From Bacilli bacterium (GTDB lineage: Bacteria > Bacillota_I > Bacilli_A > RF39 > UBA660), in assembly GCA_017438635.1 (NCBI GenBank), contig JAFRUZ010000011.1, positions 74,357 to 138,356 on the forward strand: 64,000 bases of DNA, written 5' to 3'. This document shows, one piece after another, positions 25,548 to 33,869 of this stretch (position 1 is the stretch's first letter; the number at the start of each line of letters is the position of its first letter). Position numbers and translations under genes: made by a program. The notes beneath the pieces are model-generated. The model saw only the letters and a list, made by a program, of their open reading frames with translations, made no database searches and was not told the origin of the DNA.

Positions 25548-26669
25548 TTATTTTCTAACTCTTTGTCTTCCAGTTTCTAATAAATCTTTAGTAAGACTAA
25601 TCTCTTCATTCTTATTATATTTTTGAGTCATGATATCATATAAAACTTTATTTTGAACTTCAGAAACTAATATTTGAAGTCCTCTTGCACCTACTCCCAT
25701 ATCGTAAGCATCATTAGCTAGTTTACGTACAAGTCCACTATCATACTTCACATTTTCATAATCAAATCTTTTAAAAGTTCTTACAAGATTATTAAGTGGA
25801 CTTATTTCAGAATGTAATAGTATGTTTTCATAATCTTCTATATCATACTTCTTAGTATTAGCAATCACTTTTATCTTTTTAAAGAAATCAGGACTCATAT
25901 TAGTATTAATACATTCTTTAATAGTAATATTTTCATTTGAAGTATCACTATCACAAAATCCCGGAGTTTTTACTAATCCTCTATCATTAACACCTTTTTT
26001 CTTCAAATTTGAAAAATCACCACTTAATACAAAAGTTAATTTACTAGTATCAAAAGGAACTTCTACTGGAGGATTATCACCTTGATTTATTGAAAATTGA
26101 CATATCTCACCACTCATAAGAGCAACTATTGCCTCTTGAATATATTTTCTAGCATCTATAGAGCCATAATCAGAATTATTTGCAATTTTATCAATCTCAT
26201 CAATAACTACAATACCTCTTTCAGCAAATTCTAACTGACCATCTGCTTTTAGTAATAAATCATAAAGAATTTCATTAGTAGAAAAATCATTTTCAAAAAA
26301 CTTAGATATATTAGTAATAGTAACAGGTATAGCAAGTTTAGAGGCTATATCATTTATAATTGCAGACTTACCAGTTCCAGTGGGGCCTTCCAACAGAATT
26401 GAAATTTTTCTAGATTCTAAATCAATTAAATCTAAAGTTTCTTGTTCACTAATTTCATTAAGTAAAAGTTGATTGTATAAAATATTAGAAATTAAAGTTC
26501 TAATAGCCTCATCTTGTCCTACTATTCTATTACTAACATAGTTCATAAGGTCATCAAGATCAAAATTATCTTCAAGCATCTCTTCTTCTACTTCCTCTGA
26601 TTCTTCTTTTTTATTTCTACGTAAAATAGATATAACTTTTTGTCTTATATTAAGCTGTTTTATATTCAT
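25548..26669 (-). CDS. AAA+ ATPase (ClpX/HslU-like chaperone ATPase without zinc finger)
   Basis: Walker A LLEGPTGTGKS and Walker B VVIDEIDKI. Confidence 0.55.
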   Translation of the reverse strand: MNIKQLNIRQKVISILRRNKKEESEEVEEEMLEDNFDLDDLMNYVSNRIVGQDEAIRTLISNILYNQLLLNEISEQETLDLIDLESRKISILLEGPTGTGKSAIINDIASKLAIPVTITNISKFFENDFSTNEILYDLLLKADGQLEFAERGIVVIDEIDKIANNSDYGSIDARKYIQEAIVALMSGEICQFSINQGDNPPVEVPFDTSKLTFVLSGDFSNLKKKGVNDRGLVKTPGFCDSDTSNENITIKECINTNMSPDFFKKIKVIANTKKYDIEDYENILLHSEISPLNNLVRTFKRFDYENVKYDSGLVRKLANDAYDMGVGARGLQILVSEVQNKVLYDIMTQKYNKNEEISLTKDLLETGRQRVRK

Positions 26670-26745: not shown

Positions 26746-27567
26746 TTATTTGTAGTTATCTAAAAATGATTCATATTTTCCATCTTTTTTAGTACCTAAA
26801 ATACAATTTAGATTAATATTATCATAAGCTTTAAAAATACGTTCATCCATTTTTTTATCTGTTTTTCTTAATTCTTTAATCAGTTTTTTTACTTCTTCTC
26901 TTTTGCTTTCTTTTATACTTAAATTATATTCTTCAGTAAACTTACAAGCACAGTTTAAGAAAGAAATATTATTATATTTAGACCAAGATATTATATCTTC
27001 TTCTTTTATTAAGTATAAAGGTCTAACAAGTTCAAGACCTGGGAAATTATCACTGTGAAGTTTTGGCATCATAGTCTTAATTTCAGAGCCATATAAAAGA
27101 GATAATAAACTTGTTTCAATAACATCATCAAAATGATGTCCAAGGGCTATTTTATTACAACCTAGTTCTTTTGCTTTGCTATATAAATAACCTCTTCTCA
27201 TCCTGGCACATAAGTAACAAGGACTCTTTCCTCCAACTTTATCTACTACTTCAAAAATATCACTTTCAAAAATCTCAATTGGAAGATTAAGTATCTTTGC
27301 ATTCTCTTTTATTCTATTTAAATTCTTTTCCGTATAACCAGGATTCATAACAACATAATGAGCAGTAAAAGGTATCTTACTGTGTCTTGCAAGTTCTTGT
27401 ATACACTTTGCTAATAAAAATGAATCTTTTCCTCCACTTATACAGACCATAATACTATCATTTTCTTCTATTAAATAGTACTCTTTTATCGCTTTAACAA
27501 ATTTACTCCATATTTCTTTCCTAAATCTTTTAATTATGCTTCTTTCAATTTCTTGATATCTTTCCAT
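26746..27567 (-). CDS. ttcA: PP-loop ATPase, tRNA 2-thiocytidine synthetase TtcA-like
   Basis: SGGKDS PP-loop motif and paired Cys motifs (CYLC, CAC). The start was refined to MERYQ. Confidence 0.7.
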   Translation of the reverse strand: MERYQEIERSIIKRFRKEIWSKFVKAIKEYYLIEENDSIMVCISGGKDSFLLAKCIQELARHSKIPFTAHYVVMNPGYTEKNLNRIKENAKILNLPIEIFESDIFEVVDKVGGKSPCYLCARMRRGYLYSKAKELGCNKIALGHHFDDVIETSLLSLLYGSEIKTMMPKLHSDNFPGLELVRPLYLIKEEDIISWSKYNNISFLNCACKFTEEYNLSIKESKREEVKKLIKELRKTDKKMDERIFKAYDNINLNCILGTKKDGKYESFLDNYK

Positions 27568-27631
27568 ATAACCACCACTACAGTTATTAATTATAGCATA
27601 AAAAAAGTAGACTTTCATCTACTTTATAAAA

Positions 27632-28270
27632 CTATGCTGATTCTTTTCCACAACTAGGACAGAATTTTGAATCACTTTTCATTTCTGCTCCACATTGTGA
27701 ACAGAATTTTTTATTAGAATTAGAATTAGTTTTTAATATTTCTTGCGCTTTTTTAAACACAACATCATTCATTGGGTTACTATTTCCAACATATTCTGCT
27801 TTACCAAATCCTAAAACAGGATAGAAAACAACTGGTAAAAGAATAAGTCCTACTGCAAATGAATCACTTTTACCAAAAGCTCTTGCAGTACTAACACCTA
27901 GTATAATCATAAAGTATACTGATATAACAAGAGAAATATAAGAACCTATATGTGGTATTTCTCCAAGCATACCTCCAAGAAATACAATTAATACCCACCA
28001 AGGAGATATTCCAACCATTTTACATTGTACAACTTGATTATAAAATGGAATTATAGCAGCCCATCCAGGTTGTTTTCCTTTTTTGAACATCATTATTTGG
28101 GCTATTAGTATTAAAATTGCACATATTACAACTATTATAGCAAAAACAATGAAGAAACCCACTACAAAATTAATAACGCCTTGAGGTATCTCACTACCAT
28201 TTACTGTACCATTAGAACCAAAGCTTTCCAAAAAACCATTAATATCAAAATTTTCCATATTATATTCCAT
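27632..28270 (-). CDS. Membrane protein with C-terminal zinc-ribbon (DUF5684-like)
   Basis: Several TM helices. The C-terminus has CSQCGAEMKSDSKFCPSCG. Confidence 0.5.
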   Translation of the reverse strand: MEYNMENFDINGFLESFGSNGTVNGSEIPQGVINFVVGFFIVFAIIVVICAILILIAQIMMFKKGKQPGWAAIIPFYNQVVQCKMVGISPWWVLIVFLGGMLGEIPHIGSYISLVISVYFMIILGVSTARAFGKSDSFAVGLILLPVVFYPVLGFGKAEYVGNSNPMNDVVFKKAQEILKTNSNSNKKFCSQCGAEMKSDSKFCPSCGKESA

Positions 28271-28325: not shown

Positions 28326-29390
28326 TTAATAATGAGGTCTTGCCCTTTCAATAGTAACATTATGACTACCATAGTTATACTCATCATTTAATCCGCCTAC
28401 TCTATTTTGAGTTTTGCAAGTAAATGGGTTTAGACATATATTATGACCACCTGATGTTTCTACACCAGTTGTAACTAAACCAATTAGTTTCGGAGCTACT
28501 AAGATAAACATTAATAATCCAACAACTCCTACTACAATAGCAACTGCAAGTGCTTTATTATCTTCCACTTCAGCTTCTCCTACTACTCTAATATGAGTAT
28601 TCTTTGTAGTCCATTTTAACATCTTGATTCTTAACCACCAACCATATATACCAAATGTAATTAATGTTAAGAATAGCCATAGTAAGTATTTTCCAAATAG
28701 ATTTAAAGCCCCACCTGTAAAGGCAATTCTCTTTTTATTAATAATTGTATGTTTGCTTAACCATTTAAGTCTAAAACATGTAGTAAATGTAAATAAAAGT
28801 CCTAAACTAATAGAGTTTAATATCAAACATAAAATATTTAACCCAATTAGATGAGAAGTTTTTCCATCAAAGAAACTTTCTCCTTTTATTAATTGTTCAT
28901 CTTCAAAATGAAGATTAGATACTAACCATCTTTGTTTTCTTACTGGTATAAAAAATGCATAAATACCAAATGTTATAATTGTAAGGAAAAACCATTTAAA
29001 ATAGTTAACAAATAGATCTCCACCCTTACCTTCGAATTTCAATCTTTTTCCATTATAAACAGTATGATTATATTCATATGCATATAACATACACTGAGCC
29101 CACGGTCTTCCTATAGAAAATGTAACTACTGTTATAAGACCTGCCAGAATACGCCAGCCAATAAGTTCAAGTAAACCACCATCAAAATAAGAATCAGTTC
29201 TAACTTGTTTTTCAGGTAGCACTACTTCTTGAAATTGTGGAGCTACTTCTTCATAAACTGGAGCAGCAGCTTCAGGTTGAACAGGTACAGCAGCCTCAGG
29301 ATTACTTACTACTTCTGGTTGTACTCCGTCATTAGGTACTACATTACCATCAGTAGTAGGGTTCATATTATTATTAGGTACTTCATTCAT
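28326..29390 (-). CDS. DUF898 (YjgN-like) membrane protein with internal duplication
   Basis: Two copies of the …ITFGIY(A/G)(F/W)… TM-pair module. The N-terminal region is Pro/Val-rich. Confidence 0.6.
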   Translation of the reverse strand: MNEVPNNNMNPTTDGNVVPNDGVQPEVVSNPEAAVPVQPEAAAPVYEEVAPQFQEVVLPEKQVRTDSYFDGGLLELIGWRILAGLITVVTFSIGRPWAQCMLYAYEYNHTVYNGKRLKFEGKGGDLFVNYFKWFFLTIITFGIYAFFIPVRKQRWLVSNLHFEDEQLIKGESFFDGKTSHLIGLNILCLILNSISLGLLFTFTTCFRLKWLSKHTIINKKRIAFTGGALNLFGKYLLWLFLTLITFGIYGWWLRIKMLKWTTKNTHIRVVGEAEVEDNKALAVAIVVGVVGLLMFILVAPKLIGLVTTGVETSGGHNICLNPFTCKTQNRVGGLNDEYNYGSHNVTIERARPHY

Positions 29391-29481
29391 AAAAAAACAC
29401 TTCCTTATTATATATTAATAATATCATATAAGTAATAATTTACAACATTTTTTTCACAATAAAAACAAAGAAAAGTGTAAA

Positions 29482-29751
29482 CTAAATTACTCTTTTCTTA
29501 ACATGTTTCATATTTTTAAACTCAGATATAGTCATTATTAAATTTTTTTGAGCAGCACAAGCACAACAAGTAATACTATTACATATCCAAAATGAATTAT
29601 TAGAAAAATCAACAACAAAAGGAAACTTACTGTTTTCTATCTCACCAGAAGTTAAAAAATGTTCCTCTAAATCATAGTTTTCATGAATATAATTATAAAA
29701 CTCTACTCTTAAAGAAGAATTGCTTTCTCCTATAATAAATTGTTTTCTCAT
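29482..29751 (-). CDS. Small Cys-rich hypothetical protein, the first ORF downstream of the SAM-I riboswitch
   Basis: 89 aa with a CNSITCCACAAQ cluster. The ATG lies about 30 nt after the riboswitch terminator. Confidence 0.4.
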   Translation of the reverse strand: MRKQFIIGESNSSLRVEFYNYIHENYDLEEHFLTSGEIENSKFPFVVDFSNNSFWICNSITCCACAAQKNLIMTISEFKNMKHVKKRVI

Positions 29752-29784
29752 CTTATCCTCCTTTCTGAATCTTATAAAAGAAGA

Positions 29785-29905
29785 ATAAAAAATACCTAGA
29801 TAACCTAGGTATTGTTATCTTATAGCTCTAGCATTACCACCTAACTTAATAGGTTGGTGTGATTTCATAGGGCTAGTCCCTCCATCACTCTTTATAAGAT
29901 TCAAA
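29785..29905 (-). promoter_or_regulatory. SAM-I (S-box) riboswitch with intrinsic terminator
   Basis: Minus strand: P1 TCTTATA…TATAAGA. Core AAGAGTGATGGAGGGACTAGCCCTATGAAATCAC…CAACC matches the S-box consensus. The 3' element GGTGGTAATGC is present. The terminator is ACCTAGgttatCTAGGT followed by a U-run (plus-strand 29790-29812). An upstream TGTTATAAT extended -10 sits at plus-strand 29908-29918. Confidence 0.7.
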
Positions 29906-29921
29906 TATATTATAACATATT

Positions 29922-31511
29922 TTATTCTAAAATCAAGTTTTCAATATTTATATCTGCTTTAGTAATAGTTTTAAGTACTCTCTTTTGTTTTTTATCTTTA
30001 ACGTTAGAAGCATGTCTAACTACAGTCTTTTCATAAATATTTCTAACAAATCTAGCATTACCAAAGTTCTTCATATTGCGATATTTATCAATTATTTCAC
30101 GTAAGTATTCTATAGCATCATCTTTTACTTCAAAACCTGCTTTCTTAGTCATACCTAAGAAAATCTCTATTAATTCATCAGTAGTATAATCATCAAAATG
30201 AAGAGTATATCCAATTCTAGAAGTAATACCAGAATTCGAATCAAGAAAAGCTTGCATTTCTTTAGTATATCCTGCAAAAATCACCACTAGTTTGTCTCTA
30301 TAATTTTCCATGGCTTGAATTAGTGTAGCAATTGCTTCTCCATTATAAGAATTGTCCCCACGATCTGCTAAAGCATAGGCTTCATCGATAAATAGAACTC
30401 CATTCATCGCTTTTTCTATTACAGACATAGTCTTTGGTGCAGTTTGTCCTACATACTCTGCTACTAAGTCTTTTACAGAAACTTCTACTAACTTATTTTC
30501 TTTAACATATTTCAAGTCATAAAGTATTTCAGATATCATACGAGCAATAGTAGTTTTACCTGTACCAGGATTACCTAAAAATACCATATGTAAATTAATA
30601 TCTTTTATTTTTAAGTCTTTATCTTTTTCTTTTAATGAGATAACATCAACAAGTTCATGTAATACTTTCTTAACTTTTTCAAGGCCTACTAATTCATTAA
30701 GATCTGCAAATACTTCATCAATAGTCTTTTCTTTTTCTATTACTGGAAGTTCTTTATTAAATGAAATATATTTAATTAAATCATTTTTATATTCTACATA
30801 ATCTATATCTTTACTATATGTAGCAGTAATATAATCAAGTATTTTAACTTTGAATTCATCATCTGCAGAAACCTTGTCAAGAACTTCGTTGTATATATCT
30901 TGAACATCAGGATTAACACCAGTTATATAAAAATCAAAATAATTATTTTTTACAGATTCATTTCCTAAAAAGAAATTATTAAGTTCTTCATTAGTACCTG
31001 ATATAACAGTAATACACTTACTATCTTTATCTAAGAATTCTGTTAAATCATGAATAAACTTTTTAAATGTTTTTACTTCCTCAAGATTAATACCATTTAA
31101 ATTATTAATTAGAACAAGTCCACTATCAAAATTAACATTATCCATTTTATATAAAGATATTTCTTTAGTACCTTTATCTATATAATTATAAAAAGATCCT
31201 GCAGTACTAAGTATATCGGTTATTTCTTCTACTAAAGGTTTATTATTAGACTCAAGAATTATTCTAAAAGGAATATAATTCTTTTCAGTACCTTCATTAA
31301 ACACTTTCATATACTCTACTATTCTTTTGATTAATTCTCTTGATTTATCATCAACATTTAACTCGTTTATTCTATCAAAAAGAGATGCCATATCTTCATC
31401 ATTTGGCATTTCTTCTACTTCTATTTTAGGAATATTCTCAGTATCAAAAAAGTCTTTGTATATATCTTTCAAATAGTCTTTATTCATAAGCATTCCTTTT
31501 TTATTGTTCAA
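29922..31511 (-). CDS. AAA+ ATPase, SpoVK/CbbX-like, with long N-terminal extension
   Basis: Walker A GNPGTGKTT, Walker B VLFIDEAYAL and an arginine-finger region. It overlaps the telA-like gene by 11 nt. Confidence 0.7.
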   Translation of the reverse strand: MNNKKGMLMNKDYLKDIYKDFFDTENIPKIEVEEMPNDEDMASLFDRINELNVDDKSRELIKRIVEYMKVFNEGTEKNYIPFRIILESNNKPLVEEITDILSTAGSFYNYIDKGTKEISLYKMDNVNFDSGLVLINNLNGINLEEVKTFKKFIHDLTEFLDKDSKCITVISGTNEELNNFFLGNESVKNNYFDFYITGVNPDVQDIYNEVLDKVSADDEFKVKILDYITATYSKDIDYVEYKNDLIKYISFNKELPVIEKEKTIDEVFADLNELVGLEKVKKVLHELVDVISLKEKDKDLKIKDINLHMVFLGNPGTGKTTIARMISEILYDLKYVKENKLVEVSVKDLVAEYVGQTAPKTMSVIEKAMNGVLFIDEAYALADRGDNSYNGEAIATLIQAMENYRDKLVVIFAGYTKEMQAFLDSNSGITSRIGYTLHFDDYTTDELIEIFLGMTKKAGFEVKDDAIEYLREIIDKYRNMKNFGNARFVRNIYEKTVVRHASNVKDKKQKRVLKTITKADINIENLILE

Positions 31512-32652
31512 CTTTTATTTCTAACATTTTTGCCTTTAATTCTTTTTCTAGATCTGCTAAAGTCTTTTCAGCTTCAGCACGTTTTGCTCTTCCTTCTTCA
31601 TGAATTTTAATTACTGAATCTAAAGTTTCTATTAAGTTTTGGTTTGTCTTTTGAAGTGTTTCAACATCAACAATAGCTCTTTCGCTTTCTTTAGCAATTT
31701 CAATAGATCCTTGTTTTAGAGTTTGACTATTCTTTTCTAACATTTCATTAGTAAGTTTAGAAACTTCTTGTTGAGTTTTTAAAGCTTTCTTAGCGTTACT
31801 AATTCCAAGAGCAAGTACCATTTGATTCTTCCATAATGGAATAGTATTTGTAATAGAACTTTGAATCTTTTCAACAAGTTCTGCTTCATTGTTTTGTAAT
31901 AATCTAATTTGTGGTGCCATTTGAATTGAAATTAATCTAGTAGTTTTTAAATCATATATTTTCTTTTCAAATCTATTGATTAATGCTTCCATATCATGTA
32001 CTTTTTGAGCGTCTAATTGTTCACCACTTTTTTCAGCAGCAGCCATAAGTTTAGGAAGTTCTACATTTCTTAATTCATCAAGTTTTCTTTCACCAGCAAT
32101 GATGTATAAAGATATTTCTTTAAAGTATTCAAGATTCTTTTCATACATAGTATCAAAAATAGTAATATCTTTTAACATTTGAAGTTTATCTTTTTCAAGT
32201 CCAGTTTCAATAGTATCAATATTCTTTTCAATTTTACTATATTTAGCTACTATAAAATCAAATTCCTTTTTAGCACTAGTAAATAACTTGCTAATAATAT
32301 TTTGTTTACTTACTCCGCTTACATCTTTATCAAAGGATTTAATTTGACTAACTAATTCTGCAAGTAAATCTCCTACTTCACCAGTATTCTTAGTTTTAAC
32401 ATCTTCAAGTATACTATCTGAAAATTTAGATATTTTTTCTTGAGCTGCTACACCATATTGTAGTATTTGTGCAGAGTCAGTTATATCAATTTTTTTATTG
32501 AATTCATCAATTGCTTTTTGTTCTGCTTTAGATAGTTCATCATAGTTAAGAGATTTTTCAATTTGTTTTTCAGTTACTTCTTTTTCAGTAACTAATCCTT
32601 CTAGTGATTTTTCATCAACTTTCTTTTCTACTTTTAATTCTAAATTACTCAT
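31501..32652 (-). CDS. telA: TelA (toxic anion resistance / YaaN-like) family protein
   Basis: 383-aa all-helical protein whose N-terminal region matches the TelA family pattern. Confidence 0.65.
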   Translation of the reverse strand: MSNLELKVEKKVDEKSLEGLVTEKEVTEKQIEKSLNYDELSKAEQKAIDEFNKKIDITDSAQILQYGVAAQEKISKFSDSILEDVKTKNTGEVGDLLAELVSQIKSFDKDVSGVSKQNIISKLFTSAKKEFDFIVAKYSKIEKNIDTIETGLEKDKLQMLKDITIFDTMYEKNLEYFKEISLYIIAGERKLDELRNVELPKLMAAAEKSGEQLDAQKVHDMEALINRFEKKIYDLKTTRLISIQMAPQIRLLQNNEAELVEKIQSSITNTIPLWKNQMVLALGISNAKKALKTQQEVSKLTNEMLEKNSQTLKQGSIEIAKESERAIVDVETLQKTNQNLIETLDSVIKIHEEGRAKRAEAEKTLADLEKELKAKMLEIKVEQ

Positions 32653-32654
32653 AT

Positions 32655-33869
32655 TTAATCCTCCTTTAAGTAATCAATTAATTTATTATAAGTATTCATC
32701 TTTAAACTAGTAACTGTACTAGTAATTGATTTAGGTATTCCAAGCCCTATGCTTGATACATCGTAATTACCACCTGTAACACCTGTTCTAAATCCATATC
32801 TTTCCCATGCTATTTGACTTATTTCAGGATCATTAAGCGCCTTGTATACTTTAGCACCATTTTCAGTAAATACCATGAAACAATGTGAATTCCAAATAGT
32901 AGGCGCTGGATAAAGAATTCTAACATCTTCTTTTACTCTAGCAAATGCATCAGGAGATGAATTAGCAAAATCTATCATACTCTTTTCATAATCTACAATC
33001 ATAGGTTCTCCGCCCATACCTGTTTTTAAGTATCTTTCAAATAGATCTGCTGGAGTATTATTCATATAACCTGACTTAATATAAAAATCTTTTAACTTAG
33101 GTAAATTAGCTTTAACATTTGCAGTGTTTACTTGTCCTTCACTAAGTACTGATAAAAGAAGTCCATAATATGTAGCCCCAGGTGATGATGATACAGGATC
33201 TGTTGAAGCTATATTAATATTTCCATATAAACCTTTAAGCCCTATATCTTTCCATTTCTTACCTTCAAGAATATAATCAATTAATTTATTCATGTTAGTA
33301 ATGTAATAAACATTATTACTTTTTTTAGTTACTATTTTTTCATTTATTAAAGCTTCTACAACTTCATCCCAACTATAAATAACTATTGGAGTATTTAAAG
33401 TAAGTCCTCCATCAAGTACTGTATATCTATCTGCTTCTCCTGCTTCTTTATTTGGAGATAGTTTATAGTAATCATAGAATCTTTGATCTGAAGTAAACAA
33501 AGCATCATATTTACTTACTCCAGGAGAGTTAATTGAAAAACTCTTTCCACTTTCCATTTCTGATACTATACTTTGATTACCAAGTCCAACGCTTTCTCTA
33601 ATAAGTGGTTTAGTAATAGTCTTACCATTACTCCAAGTATCAAATACAACGTTCAATTTGTATTTTTTTCTAAGTATTTTCTTAACATCAGCATCATTTA
33701 AGAAATCTTCTTTTCCTCCACCAGTTGCAACATATACTGTAGTTAATTTCCCTACAAATGGTTTATTACCATCAGAATCTGTAAAATACTTAATGAAGAT
33801 CATGGCCCCAACAAGAATTACAAATATTAGAATTCCTGTTATTACATTTCTAGTCTTCATTATTATCAC
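32655..33869 (-). CDS. Membrane-anchored periplasmic-binding-protein-like domain protein, hypothetical
   Basis: N-terminal TM helix and a PBP-fold-like extracellular region. It is paralogous in character to the N-terminal half of the downstream vWA lipoprotein. Confidence 0.4.
   Translation of the reverse strand: MIIMKTRNVITGILIFVILVGAMIFIKYFTDSDGNKPFVGKLTTVYVATGGGKEDFLNDADVKKILRKKYKLNVVFDTWSNGKTITKPLIRESVGLGNQSIVSEMESGKSFSINSPGVSKYDALFTSDQRFYDYYKLSPNKEAGEADRYTVLDGGLTLNTPIVIYSWDEVVEALINEKIVTKKSNNVYYITNMNKLIDYILEGKKWKDIGLKGLYGNINIASTDPVSSSPGATYYGLLLSVLSEGQVNTANVKANLPKLKDFYIKSGYMNNTPADLFERYLKTGMGGEPMIVDYEKSMIDFANSSPDAFARVKEDVRILYPAPTIWNSHCFMVFTENGAKVYKALNDPEISQIAWERYGFRTGVTGGNYDVSSIGLGIPKSITSTVTSLKMNTYNKLIDYLKED

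Follow-up and report, generated by a model that had tools for sequence, protein, structure and literature searches.

A stretch of DNA of 64,000 nucleotides from a Bacilli bacterium (the whole stretch is called the window here) carries an apparent SAM riboswitch directly in front of a small Cys-rich open reading frame (ORF) and a run of genes outside classical methionine and cysteine metabolism. Few riboswitches are as well studied as SAM-I, whose regulon is considered well mapped. The locus raises the question of whether the element is a true SAM-I riboswitch, which of the genes behind it are regulated, and what the product of the small ORF has to do with SAM.

The aptamer

We searched the window with cmscan, and the SAM family (SAM-I, Rfam RF00162) was the sole above-gathering match in the whole of it. 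The match lies at 29900..29817 on the minus strand and scored 67.9 bits against a cut-off of 44.4 (E 1.1e-13). Model positions 1-108 were covered by the alignment, with 17 P4 positions deleted. Based on cmscan and covariation, the aptamer is P4-less and has a length of 84 nt (29817..29900, minus strand). P1 is formed by 29900-29893 with 29824-29817, P2 has the G.A/A.G signature of a K-turn, P3 is also present, and a pseudoknot joins CUAG of L2 (29876-29873) to CUAG at 29831-29828. The core GGAGGGACTAGCCCTATGAAA was found as well. A linker of 3 nt stands where P4 is expected, and the distance from the pseudoknot strand to P1 was 3 nt in 30/30 leaders. A sequence-only reading of this DNA had described a well-formed S-box at 29785-29905 on the minus strand, with a P1 helix and the core. 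The significant RF00162 match agrees with this, and the interval comprises the aptamer and the terminator behind it; the description as well-formed is right for P1, P2, P3 and the pseudoknot but not for P4, which is entirely missing.

We analyzed the pairing in 30 distinct homologous aptamers and found that 98.5% of the cells were paired, compared with 30-46% in slid controls. Compensatory changes occurred in 8 pairs over these aptamers, pseudoknot included (P1, two pairs; P2, three; P2b, one; P3, one). The pseudoknot CUAG (aptamer 25-28) : CUAG (70-73) was 100% paired across homologues, and its CUGG:CCAG form at locus L054 represents a compensatory change. The K-turn nucleotides G19, A20, G35, and A36 were invariant or nearly so. 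The Rfam gathering score was passed by 19 of the 20 homologous loci tested. The related classes SAM-I/IV (RF01725) and SAM-IV (RF00634) were not favoured, with RF00162 alone retained in the clan competition of cmscan. The second pseudoknot and extra 3' hairpin of these two classes are also absent here, the sequence 3' of P1 being occupied by the terminator. Together, homology search and covariation confirm the predicted element as a genuine SAM-I riboswitch, a three-helix plus pseudoknot variant without P4. We infer the ligand response to SAM from family membership. Loss of P4 in SAM-I aptamers is reported to lower affinity while function is kept (PMC12714719).

Promoter, terminator and antiterminator

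A sigma-70-type promoter with an extended -10 (TTGATT-16-TGtTATAAT, 10/12 matches, TG present) is located at 29909..29936 on the minus strand, and transcription from it would begin no more than a few nt away from the first base of P1. A TGnTATAAT or TATAAT box was found 7-10 nt 5' of the aptamer in nearly all homologous leaders. Behind the aptamer, as the sequence-only reading had also noted, is an intrinsic terminator followed by a T-run (AATACCTAGGTTATCTAGGTATT; minus strand, stem 29813..29791, T-run to 29785). The antiterminator, a pairing read from the sequence, would form on the same strand between AGATAAC (29820-29814), made up of the last nucleotides of the P1 3' strand and AAC, and GTTATCT (29804-29798), which belongs to the 3' half of the terminator.

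The terminator stems vary among loci while their complementarity is kept, as in ACCTAGG/CTAGGT, GACTTAAG/CTTAAGTC, TACTTAGAG/CTCTAAGTA, and ACCCAGAG/CTCTGGGT. Despite this covariation, GTTATC is constant across loci. Promoter, covarying terminator, and antiterminator complementarity recur in about 30 distinct leaders. These observations support a putative expression platform of the terminator type that is OFF when SAM is bound and in which terminator and P1 3' strand compete.

The region around the Shine-Dalgarno sequence

The Shine-Dalgarno (SD) sequence GAAAGGAGG (29757..29765, minus strand) is located 5 nt 5' of the ATG at 29751. Adjacent to it is an 11-nt element, TTTTATAAGAT (29769..29779, minus strand), which is the complement of leader nt 1-11, ATCTTATAAAG. 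The former repeats the P1 3' strand, and the latter consists of the P1 5' strand plus J1/2. Among 29 distinct leaders, 11 contiguous pairs could be formed between these two segments in 17, 9 in 4, and 5-6 in 8. Pairing between the 5' end and the SD-proximal element reached 91.3%, compared with 47-60% in slid controls, and two pairs showed a compensatory change; these are the only two compensatory events behind this pairing.

Folding predicted that the SD is paired with the U-run/CUUCUUU tract in the read-through RNA and that the 11-nt element lies in the loop of this SD-sequestering hairpin. The probability of an unpaired SD was 0.00 in the MFE ensemble of the window leader. Equilibrium folding of the full leader, with or without the aptamer enforced, gave mixed SD accessibility and is of qualitative use only. 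The 11-nt element suggests a second control layer at the leader, which we consider likely from the conservation of the complementarity.

The small protein family

The ORF directly after the riboswitch (29482..29751, minus strand, ATG at 29751) has the length and Cys content that the sequence-only reading had given it: it encodes 89 aa, contains WICNSITCCACAAQ, and has four Cys within 9 residues. It is a member of a family of small alpha/beta proteins of about 75-100 aa. AF2 predicted a compact alpha/beta domain for the product with a pLDDT of 84.3, and a deeper alignment raised this to 88.3 (pTM 0.78). In the model, the motif W-I-C-N-S-I-T-C-C-A-C-A-A-Q runs from the end of strand 53-56 to the start of helix 60-68.

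We searched for relatives of the family in known collections. Pfam, NCBIfam, PHROGs, and PADLOC gave no match, nor did the profiles of the sulfur carriers TusA and ThiS/MoaD or a fold search of the model against the PDB and BFVD. A profile search of the PDB returned only a chance lectin repeat. No relative was found in GTDB species genomes with a peptide-pattern scan for the close family. A degenerate DNA pattern for WICNSITCCACA matched one MAG (L009, 'uncultured Firmicutes') and gave no match in JGI metagenomes. We read the product as a small cytosolic protein from a family not described earlier. Co-operonic ORFs of 103, 78, and 135 aa were considered as paralogues but found no support, with hhalign probabilities of 13.5%, 0.2%, and 1%, respectively.

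In the riboswitch-linked clade, marked by S-x-T-C-C-A, the residues S, T, C, C, and A show no variation, the Cys before them is nearly invariant, and the fourth Cys varies. In a distant clade, T/S/A stand in place of C-C, and in many members of the family Cys gives way to T/S/A/V/L. No riboswitch accompanies the distant Cys-free clade, which has ADP-ribosylglycohydrolase genes alongside. The small protein may have a thiol or metal site, as in the metal or sulfur carrier that the sequence-only reading had suggested. It had also been proposed that the product could be a precursor peptide; a RiPP precursor finds no support, given the predicted compact domain, in which the Cys residues lie on and just before a helix, and the lack of a recurrent adjacent maturase.

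Extent of the regulated unit

The genes downstream are those named in the sequence-only reading: profile matches identified a DUF898/DUF6693 membrane protein (28326..29390), a membrane protein with DUF5684 and a zinc ribbon (27632..28270), and a TtcA-like PP-loop ATPase (26746..27618), all on the minus strand. The ATPase scored 198.6 bits against TtcA, below the 272-bit cut-off, and can be called TtcA-like only. The order small ORF-DUF898-zinc ribbon-TtcA-like was found only in the close relatives L001, L003, L065, and L068. Elsewhere the same leader and small ORF precede NERD, metK, PrgI/VirB4, or unrelated genes. Between the small ORF and DUF898 of L065 there are a terminator hairpin and a TTGACA box. 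In the window, neither a terminator nor a stable structure was found in this spacer, and a promoter-like TTGTAA-16-TATTAT is located 5' of DUF898 (29418..29445, minus strand). Some read-through from the small ORF into DUF898 is possible in the window. Because the synteny is limited to close relatives and L065 has the terminator, the predicted regulated unit is the small ORF, with the DUF898, zinc-ribbon, and TtcA-like genes as bystanders. The proposal that riboswitch control extends over these genes to ttcA is not borne out by this comparison.

Leader association and genomic contexts

Homologous loci were gathered by protein similarity alone, and the association with the leader was therefore not built into the collection. 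The same P4-less leader was present at 34 of the 35 JGI metagenome loci of the S-x-T-C-C-A clade with at least 150 nt upstream, a count inflated by common ancestry, most of the loci being from a small number of gut and rumen assemblies. The exception, L058, keeps the 3' half of the terminator and the SD-proximal element. All clade loci from ENA/Logan have the leader. The distance from the aptamer to the ATG was 33-87 nt across many unrelated contexts. Median identity was 89% for the aptamer, 65% for the coding sequence, and 48% for the protein, and aptamers were 88-98% identical across hosts whose proteins were 40-60% identical.

The most widespread member, P0083, is listed in 134 collection blocks. 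Flanked by DUF3846 and PrgI/VirB4, it lies inside a region for conjugative transfer and has its own leader and terminator. In the conjugative element, the same leader also has a 103-aa ORF as its first gene. Further copies adjoin GmrSD, Macro, and NERD genes, which are defence-like or mobile surroundings, and members of the distant clade are fused or adjacent to ADP-ribosylglycohydrolase, beside an integrase. The many copies in such settings could indicate a role other than one with MetK. Scans of IMG/VR with the protein family, P0010, and the aptamer pattern gave no match, nor did INPHARED phages and PLSDB plasmids, nor PADLOC on the cassette proteins and their neighbours. We found no report in the literature of a SAM riboswitch on a conjugative element. 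From the conservation and contexts of these loci, the riboswitch and the small protein are evidently a cassette moving through gut and rumen bacteria and mobile elements.

Linkage to metK

The gene metK was located immediately 3' of the small ORF in 11/54 loci (9 distinct), with stop and start codons that abut or overlap. Clustering of the neighbours identified metK as the only enzyme recurrent beside the small ORF. In the window itself metK is absent. The sequence-only reading had stated that no canonical SAM-regulon member accompanies the riboswitch; this is correct locally, since the window has no classical Met/Cys gene, but does not extend to the family. Three loci (L055, L056, and L066) are on the chromosome; rubrerythrin, L11, and L1 are encoded upstream and QueH downstream, and the arrangement rplKA-cassette-metK-queH exemplifies a housekeeping locus. 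At 4 loci, a second small family (75-79 aa, ICG ending) is found in the same operon, and in L077 it has its own copy of the leader.

Adjacent MetK forms of 337-347 aa have the Pfam N, M, and C domains. We rejected the small protein as a MetK fragment or missing domain: hhalign of the family against MetK gave a probability of 0.2%, and a 339-aa MetK aligns end-to-end with the Ureaplasma MAT 6rjs. We know of no bacterial MetK subunit, and a literature search for a small protein upstream of metK found no relevant report. Adjacency in only about 20% of loci speaks against a role tied to MetK, as does the absence of metK from the window. With both a recurrent SAM riboswitch and adjacency to metK, the small ORF qualifies as a putative SAM-regulon member.

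Proposed mechanism and alternative explanations

Our main reading, to which we give a probability of roughly 55%, is that the P4-less SAM-I riboswitch is a transcriptional OFF switch for the 89-aa ORF and that the product is a SAM-regulon helper of MetK or SAM supply. The riboswitch would be at the extreme 5' end of a short mRNA with one target gene. With SAM bound, P1 would hold the AGAT of its 3' strand, the terminator at 29813-29791 would form, and RNA polymerase would halt at the T-run. When SAM is low, AGATAAC would pair with GTTATCT of the terminator, resulting in read-through and synthesis of the protein. In the read-through RNA, the freed leader nt 1-11 may pair with their perfect complement at 29779-29769, adjoining the SD; without this capture of the 5' end, the U-run/CU tract would sequester the SD. 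Such capture would fix the leader in the ON state, free the SD, and/or shield the 5' end. The small protein would join the SAM regulon as a new member, made when SAM runs short, and would partner or modulate SAM synthetase, with stand-alone copies (the one in the window included) and copies on conjugative elements acting on host MetK in trans. The clade stands nearly always behind the leader and about one-fifth of the loci directly before metK, which makes an accessory role in MetK function or SAM supply the most likely one for the protein. A stronger version, which we put forward only tentatively, is that the 85-90-aa protein is a dedicated regulatory subunit of SAM synthetase, packaged with a minimal SAM sensor as a cassette that passes between chromosomes and conjugative elements and whose leader carries a second lock.

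A role in sulfur amino-acid chemistry separate from MetK appears rather unlikely. The protein would be thiol- or metal-based (Zn or Fe-S), with the vicinal Cys pair at the helix N-terminus as active site, and would for example bind homocysteine or methionine or give redox protection. The invariant S, T, C, C, and A with the nearly invariant Cys before them, the position of the motif at the start of predicted helix 60-68, and induction at low SAM, which suits a helper of the Met/Cys pathway, are in line with it. Homocysteine S-methyltransferases, an analogy only, activate homocysteine at Zn(Cys)3 sites in which two of the Cys are vicinal. The many members in which Cys is replaced argue against such a site, as do the lack of resemblance to known metal or redox families and the fact that, metK aside, no Met/Cys enzyme recurs nearby. 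Sulfur chemistry is also involved if the whole gene run of the window is one unit and its first product a precursor peptide or a sulfur carrier for tRNA thiolation. All five genes there are co-oriented with short gaps and no predicted terminator after the small ORF, and four Cys in 9 residues are found 2 kb upstream of a PP-loop sulfurtransferase-like gene. We regard this as very unlikely given the restricted synteny with other neighbours elsewhere, the terminator and TTGACA box of L065, the predicted folded domain, and the lack of a recurrent maturase or of a TusA/ThiS-like or other Pfam match.

The mobility of the cassette bears on two further explanations. The protein could be a SAM-gated tool of mobile elements that manipulates host restriction, BREX, or methylation, or that answers SAM depletion in conflict, the copy in the window being domesticated or a passenger. 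P0083 in its conjugative transfer region, the copies beside GmrSD, Macro, and NERD genes, and the distant clade with ADP-ribosylglycohydrolase next to an integrase would fit, and the aptamers are more alike than the proteins, as a transferable cassette predicts. We consider this improbable, however, with no match in PADLOC, IMG/VR, INPHARED phages, or PLSDB plasmids, several loci that are plainly housekeeping, and, to our knowledge, no anti-defence activity of the small family. The high aptamer identity relative to coding sequence and protein, the near-strict co-occurrence of leader and ORF, and the loss from all copies of P4, which normally supports affinity, would also be expected if the protein bound its own leader in place of P4, tuned SAM affinity, and autoregulated. 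This seems highly improbable: the same leader precedes other first ORFs (the 103-aa ORF in the conjugative element and the 75-79-aa family), the protein sequence is not notably basic and has no RNA-binding signature, and the RNA conservation may merely reflect a minimal fold with little slack.

Comparison with known systems

The predicted element shares with the classical S-box leaders of metK and met genes in Bacillus and Clostridium the core of P1, P2 K-turn, P3, and L2:J3/4 pseudoknot. It also shares the terminator/antiterminator/anti-antiterminator logic, OFF at high SAM, and in 11 loci metK ends the operon. In contrast to these leaders, P4 is missing (84 nt versus about 108 or more), the regulated unit opens with a small ORF that is often its sole gene, an additional complement of the 5' strand is located by the SD, and the cassette is also found within a conjugative element. 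Natural SAM-I aptamers with no P4 or a short one are reported mainly from Actinomycetota (PMC12714719). They share with the present aptamer the deletion of P4 and a preserved SAM-binding core; here the host is a Firmicute of 26% G+C, the platform is a terminator rather than an SD within P1, and a single gene family is served.

In SAM-IV and SAM-I/IV the peripheral helices are different ones, and an additional pseudoknot lies 3' of P1. These members of Rfam clan CL00012 have in common with the present leader a SAM-I-like core with an altered periphery, whereas here nothing substitutes for P4. In E. coli, the lysC riboswitch acts at two levels, translation and decay. Likewise, a single aptamer may act here on read-through and, in addition, on ribosome access or the stability of the mRNA; the proposed device differs in that a repeat of the P1 3' strand, placed downstream, would capture the free 5' strand, of which we found no description for SAM-I in the literature. 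The mammalian MAT2B is a regulatory beta subunit of methionine adenosyltransferase with an SDR fold of roughly 330 aa. The likeness is in the proposed role only, as a non-catalytic modulator of SAM synthetase, with no similarity in sequence or fold.

Significance

The results warn that gene order in a single genome can mislead the assignment of riboswitch regulons. The set of variants around this natural minimal 84-nt P4-less aptamer is large and of use for biophysics, and the leader suggests an expression platform of two levels. The unannotated family is linked to SAM-I more tightly than most known members of the regulon, and it offers bacterial SAM homeostasis a concrete candidate for a player not yet recognised. 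If the proposed role is true, any genome with the cassette would sense a falling SAM pool and adjust the host MetK.

A SAM-I riboswitch lacking P4

We scanned all 64 kb of the window with cmscan (Rfam 15). The sole match above threshold was RF00162 (SAM-I) on the minus strand at 29900..29817 (67.9 bits, E 1.1e-13; gathering score 44.4 bits). The SAM-I riboswitch proposed in the sequence-only reading was thus recovered as a real match, but its P4 is missing. Because 17 P4 model positions are absent, the aptamer is just 84 nt long.

We aligned 30 distinct homologous leaders and counted pairs for P1, P2a, P2b, P3, and the L2:J3/4 pseudoknot. Standard pairs were found in 98.5% of cells, compared with 30-46% when the 3' partners were slid. 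Eight pairs across the aptamer structure showed compensatory changes; one of the eight is in the pseudoknot, with CUAG:CUAG replaced by CUGG:CCAG in the homologous locus L054. The tandem G.A/A.G of the K-turn was invariant or almost so. Just 3 nt lie between the pseudoknot strand and the P1 3' strand, indicating that P4 is truly absent. Natural P4-less SAM-I aptamers have been described, chiefly in Actinomycetota, and reported to be functional at lower affinity (PMC12714719), so the loss of P4 is a known variant. It is unusual for a terminator-type Firmicute leader.

Probable transcriptional switch and a putative second control layer

The signals flanking the aptamer lie on the minus strand where the sequence-only reading had placed them: a promoter (TTGATT-16-TATAAT with an upstream TG, 29936..29909), a terminator (AATACCTAGGTTATCTAGGTATT plus T-run, 29813..29785), a Shine-Dalgarno sequence (SD) GAAAGGAGG (29765..29757), and the ATG of the 89-aa ORF (29751). 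With the -10 box ending 8 nt upstream of P1, transcription probably begins at the aptamer or right beside it. The last bases of the P1 3' strand and the AAC after them read AGATAAC (29820-29814), which is complementary to GTTATCT (29804-29798) within the terminator. Terminator stems vary among loci with their two halves still complementary, and GTTATC is conserved. Judged from sequence, this is the classical anti-antiterminator/antiterminator/terminator layout. By analogy with the SAM-I family, P1 would form at high SAM and cause termination, while low SAM would permit read-through. We consider it highly probable (about 0.9) that the leader is a SAM-responsive transcriptional OFF switch with the small ORF as its dedicated target.

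A further element, TTTTATAAGAT (29779-29769, minus strand), is located between the T-run and the SD and is perfectly complementary to leader nt 1-11, which comprise the P1 5' strand and the AAG of J1/2. Among 29 distinct leaders, the contiguous pairs between this element and the 5' end numbered 11 in 17 leaders, 9 in 4, and 5-6 in 8. Pairing was found in 91.3% of cells versus 47-60% in slid controls, with two compensatory events: T2C with A-to-G (loci L054 and L061) and A8T with T-to-A (L043, L049, and L052). The element was absent from L009 and L070. In the predicted fold it occupies the loop of a hairpin whose stem pairs the U-run/CU-rich tract with the SD; equilibrium folds of the leader were mixed. 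A second layer of control is plausible, in which the free 5' strand of read-through RNA would capture the element. Capture would block later P1 formation, separate the strands of the anti-SD stem, and leave the 5' end buried, and transcripts that passed the terminator with SAM bound would have the SD still closed.

A small-protein family coupled to the riboswitch

The 89-aa product had no match in Pfam, NCBIfam, PHROG, or PADLOC. Just nine clusters for it emerged when 5.8 billion proteins were searched by word index; with a profile run against 1.84 billion representatives, the family grew to 57 clusters of ~75-100 aa. A protein-based scan of JGI metagenomes uncovered 48 family loci. The aptamer was present in 34 of the 35 JGI loci with at least 150 nt 5' of the ORF, and the leaders of 19 out of 20 loci tested passed the Rfam cut-off. 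The aptamer lies 33-87 nt upstream of the ATG, or ~290-320 nt where another small ORF intervenes. In L058, the sole aptamer-less locus of the 35, the aptamer and the terminator 5' half are lost (L058:150-250); what is kept behind a TTGACA box is the SD, the SD-proximal element, and GGTATCTTAAGTCTTTTTTT, the terminator 3' half. The locus is a natural deletion derivative, and these remnants behind the TTGACA box imply constitutive expression.

AlphaFold2 gave a confident compact model (pLDDT 84.3 with 10 sequences; pLDDT 88.3 and pTM 0.78 with 47) of beta-alpha-beta-alpha-beta-beta-alpha-beta-alpha topology. This predicted compactness argues against a RiPP precursor; the sequence-only reading had suggested a precursor peptide as one possible role. 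The family had no structure match in PDB or BFVD and no profile similarity to MetK. In the model, the motif WICNSITCCACAAQ covers the end of strand 53-56 and the start of helix 60-68. The riboswitch-linked clade shows no variation in its S, T, C, C, and A, and the preceding Cys is nearly invariant there; across the wider family these sites hold T, S, A, V, or L. The riboswitch-linked clade may have a thiol or metal site that is specific to it.

Neighboring genes and recurrence of metK

The genes downstream in the window encode a DUF898/DUF6693 membrane protein, a DUF5684 plus zinc-ribbon protein, and a PP-loop ATPase, TtcA-like with a score under the TtcA cut-off, matching the earlier description. 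This gene order is common to the close relatives L001, L003, and L006, and clustering of neighbors showed that the DUF898, zinc-ribbon, and TtcA-like genes trail the cassette (leader plus family member) in the closest relatives only. In L004, where the homologue is 50% identical and the 84-nt riboswitch is the same, the next gene is NERD/HRDC, and L005 and L009 have yet other cassette neighbors. No terminator was predicted in the window's spacer between the small ORF and DUF898, and some read-through into DUF898 may occur there. In L065 this spacer holds a terminator hairpin and a TTGACA box; read-through is not a conserved feature.

On its upstream side (window 29922-33869), the cassette is flanked by genes for TelA (toxic anion resistance), a SpoVK/CbbX-like AAA+ ATPase, and an unannotated 404-aa protein, and on its downstream side (25548-26669) by a ClpX-like AAA+ ATPase, a CoatF-like pair, and a DUF2779/Cas4-like protein. 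Relatives carry Halogen_Hydrol (XpaC-like) and vWA/SBP genes further upstream. All ORFs of at least 200 aa in the inspected ~23.5-33.9 kb are on the minus strand, and GC skew is strongly negative (-0.17 to -0.32) at 24-29% G+C (window 1-64000).

The sequence-only reading had noted the absence of a canonical SAM gene, which holds for this window but does not extend to the family. With all neighboring ORFs clustered, metK was the only recurrent partner, directly downstream in 11 out of 54 loci (9 distinct), and the family-member stop and metK start codons abut or overlap. The enzymes encoded by four of these metK genes are 337-347 aa long and contain all three MetK domains; one of the four aligns end to end with Ureaplasma MAT. 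The remaining cassette metK genes encode much reduced proteins of ~260 aa (L055:2766-3548, L056:2767-3549, L066:980-1762, L072:2764-3543, and L074:194-973) that keep HPDK, GDxG, DGK, and GGGxxGKD and may be a minimal SAM synthetase. They are ~120 aa under normal length, with just the N-terminal Pfam domain recognized, and constitute the operon's metK at housekeeping sites (rplK-rplA upstream, queH downstream). L055, L056, and L066 are ordinary chromosomal sites, ordered rubrerythrin, L11, L1, cassette plus metK, and QueH.

A second small family of 75-79 aa, with several Cys, a C-terminal I/L-C-G (ICG), and no annotation, was identified at L054:1540-1773, L010:39-272, L057:155-388, L066:472-696, and L077:8568-8807. 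Four metK operons have it after the leader and ahead of the family member. The L077 gene is on its own and is preceded by a separate copy of this P4-less leader, so that this single contig holds two leader copies 3.5 kb apart.

Mobile contexts and distant relatives

The most widespread family protein, P0083, is listed in 134 collection blocks; the 24 contigs that we read were all from gut metagenomes. DUF3846 and PrgI/VirB4 flank its operon, which is part of a conjugative transfer region and has the order leader, 103-aa ORF, family member, and terminator (85-aa member, L019:2529-3290, also L020-L028; pig, human, and other gut metagenomes). The 103-aa ORF had no family match, and hhalign against the family gave a weak, in-register alignment (probability 13.5%).

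A distant clade (GNVTTSAAA) has neither Cys nor riboswitch. At L016:240-1477, L017:147-1384, and L018:1599-2836, its members come directly after a gene for ADP-ribosylglycohydrolase, with a phage-type integrase nearby; in the protein P0080 the member is fused to the ADP-ribosylglycohydrolase domain. A short DUF898 gene is nearby in L018. In L011-L013, of the riboswitch-linked clade, the member follows a Macro-domain gene. In another family protein, P0039 (115 aa), the N-terminal half of the family domain has given way to what we take, from its sequence, to be an XRE-like helix-turn-helix segment, fused to the C-terminal beta-hairpin and helix of that domain.

Possible role of the family

Predicted induction at low SAM, frames that abut or overlap with metK in many loci, and a second small family in the same operons lead us to suggest, tentatively and at somewhat under even odds, that the protein's partner or target is MetK or SAM supply. 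It could instead serve sulfur metabolism independently of MetK, as a thiol or metal protein to which the possible site in the riboswitch-linked clade would belong. Other rivals are a mobile-element tool manipulating SAM-dependent host processes and a cofactor of the protein's own P4-less aptamer. On both of these bears a comparison of the window (aptamer 29817-29900) with 29 other loci, in which the aptamer is far better conserved than the gene behind it: median pairwise identity is 89% for the aptamer but 65% at the level of the CDS and 48% at that of the protein.

Neither this class of riboswitch and its logic nor the loss of P4 is new. A literature search returned no description of the family, its coupling to the leader, its metK or conjugative placement, or the 5'-strand-capturing element. 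What appears to be new is the protein family and its near-obligate coupling to a minimal leader, its occurrence both within metK operons and on a conjugative element, and the 5'-strand-capturing element. As a whole, the small-protein family is a companion of metK, the most canonical S-box gene.
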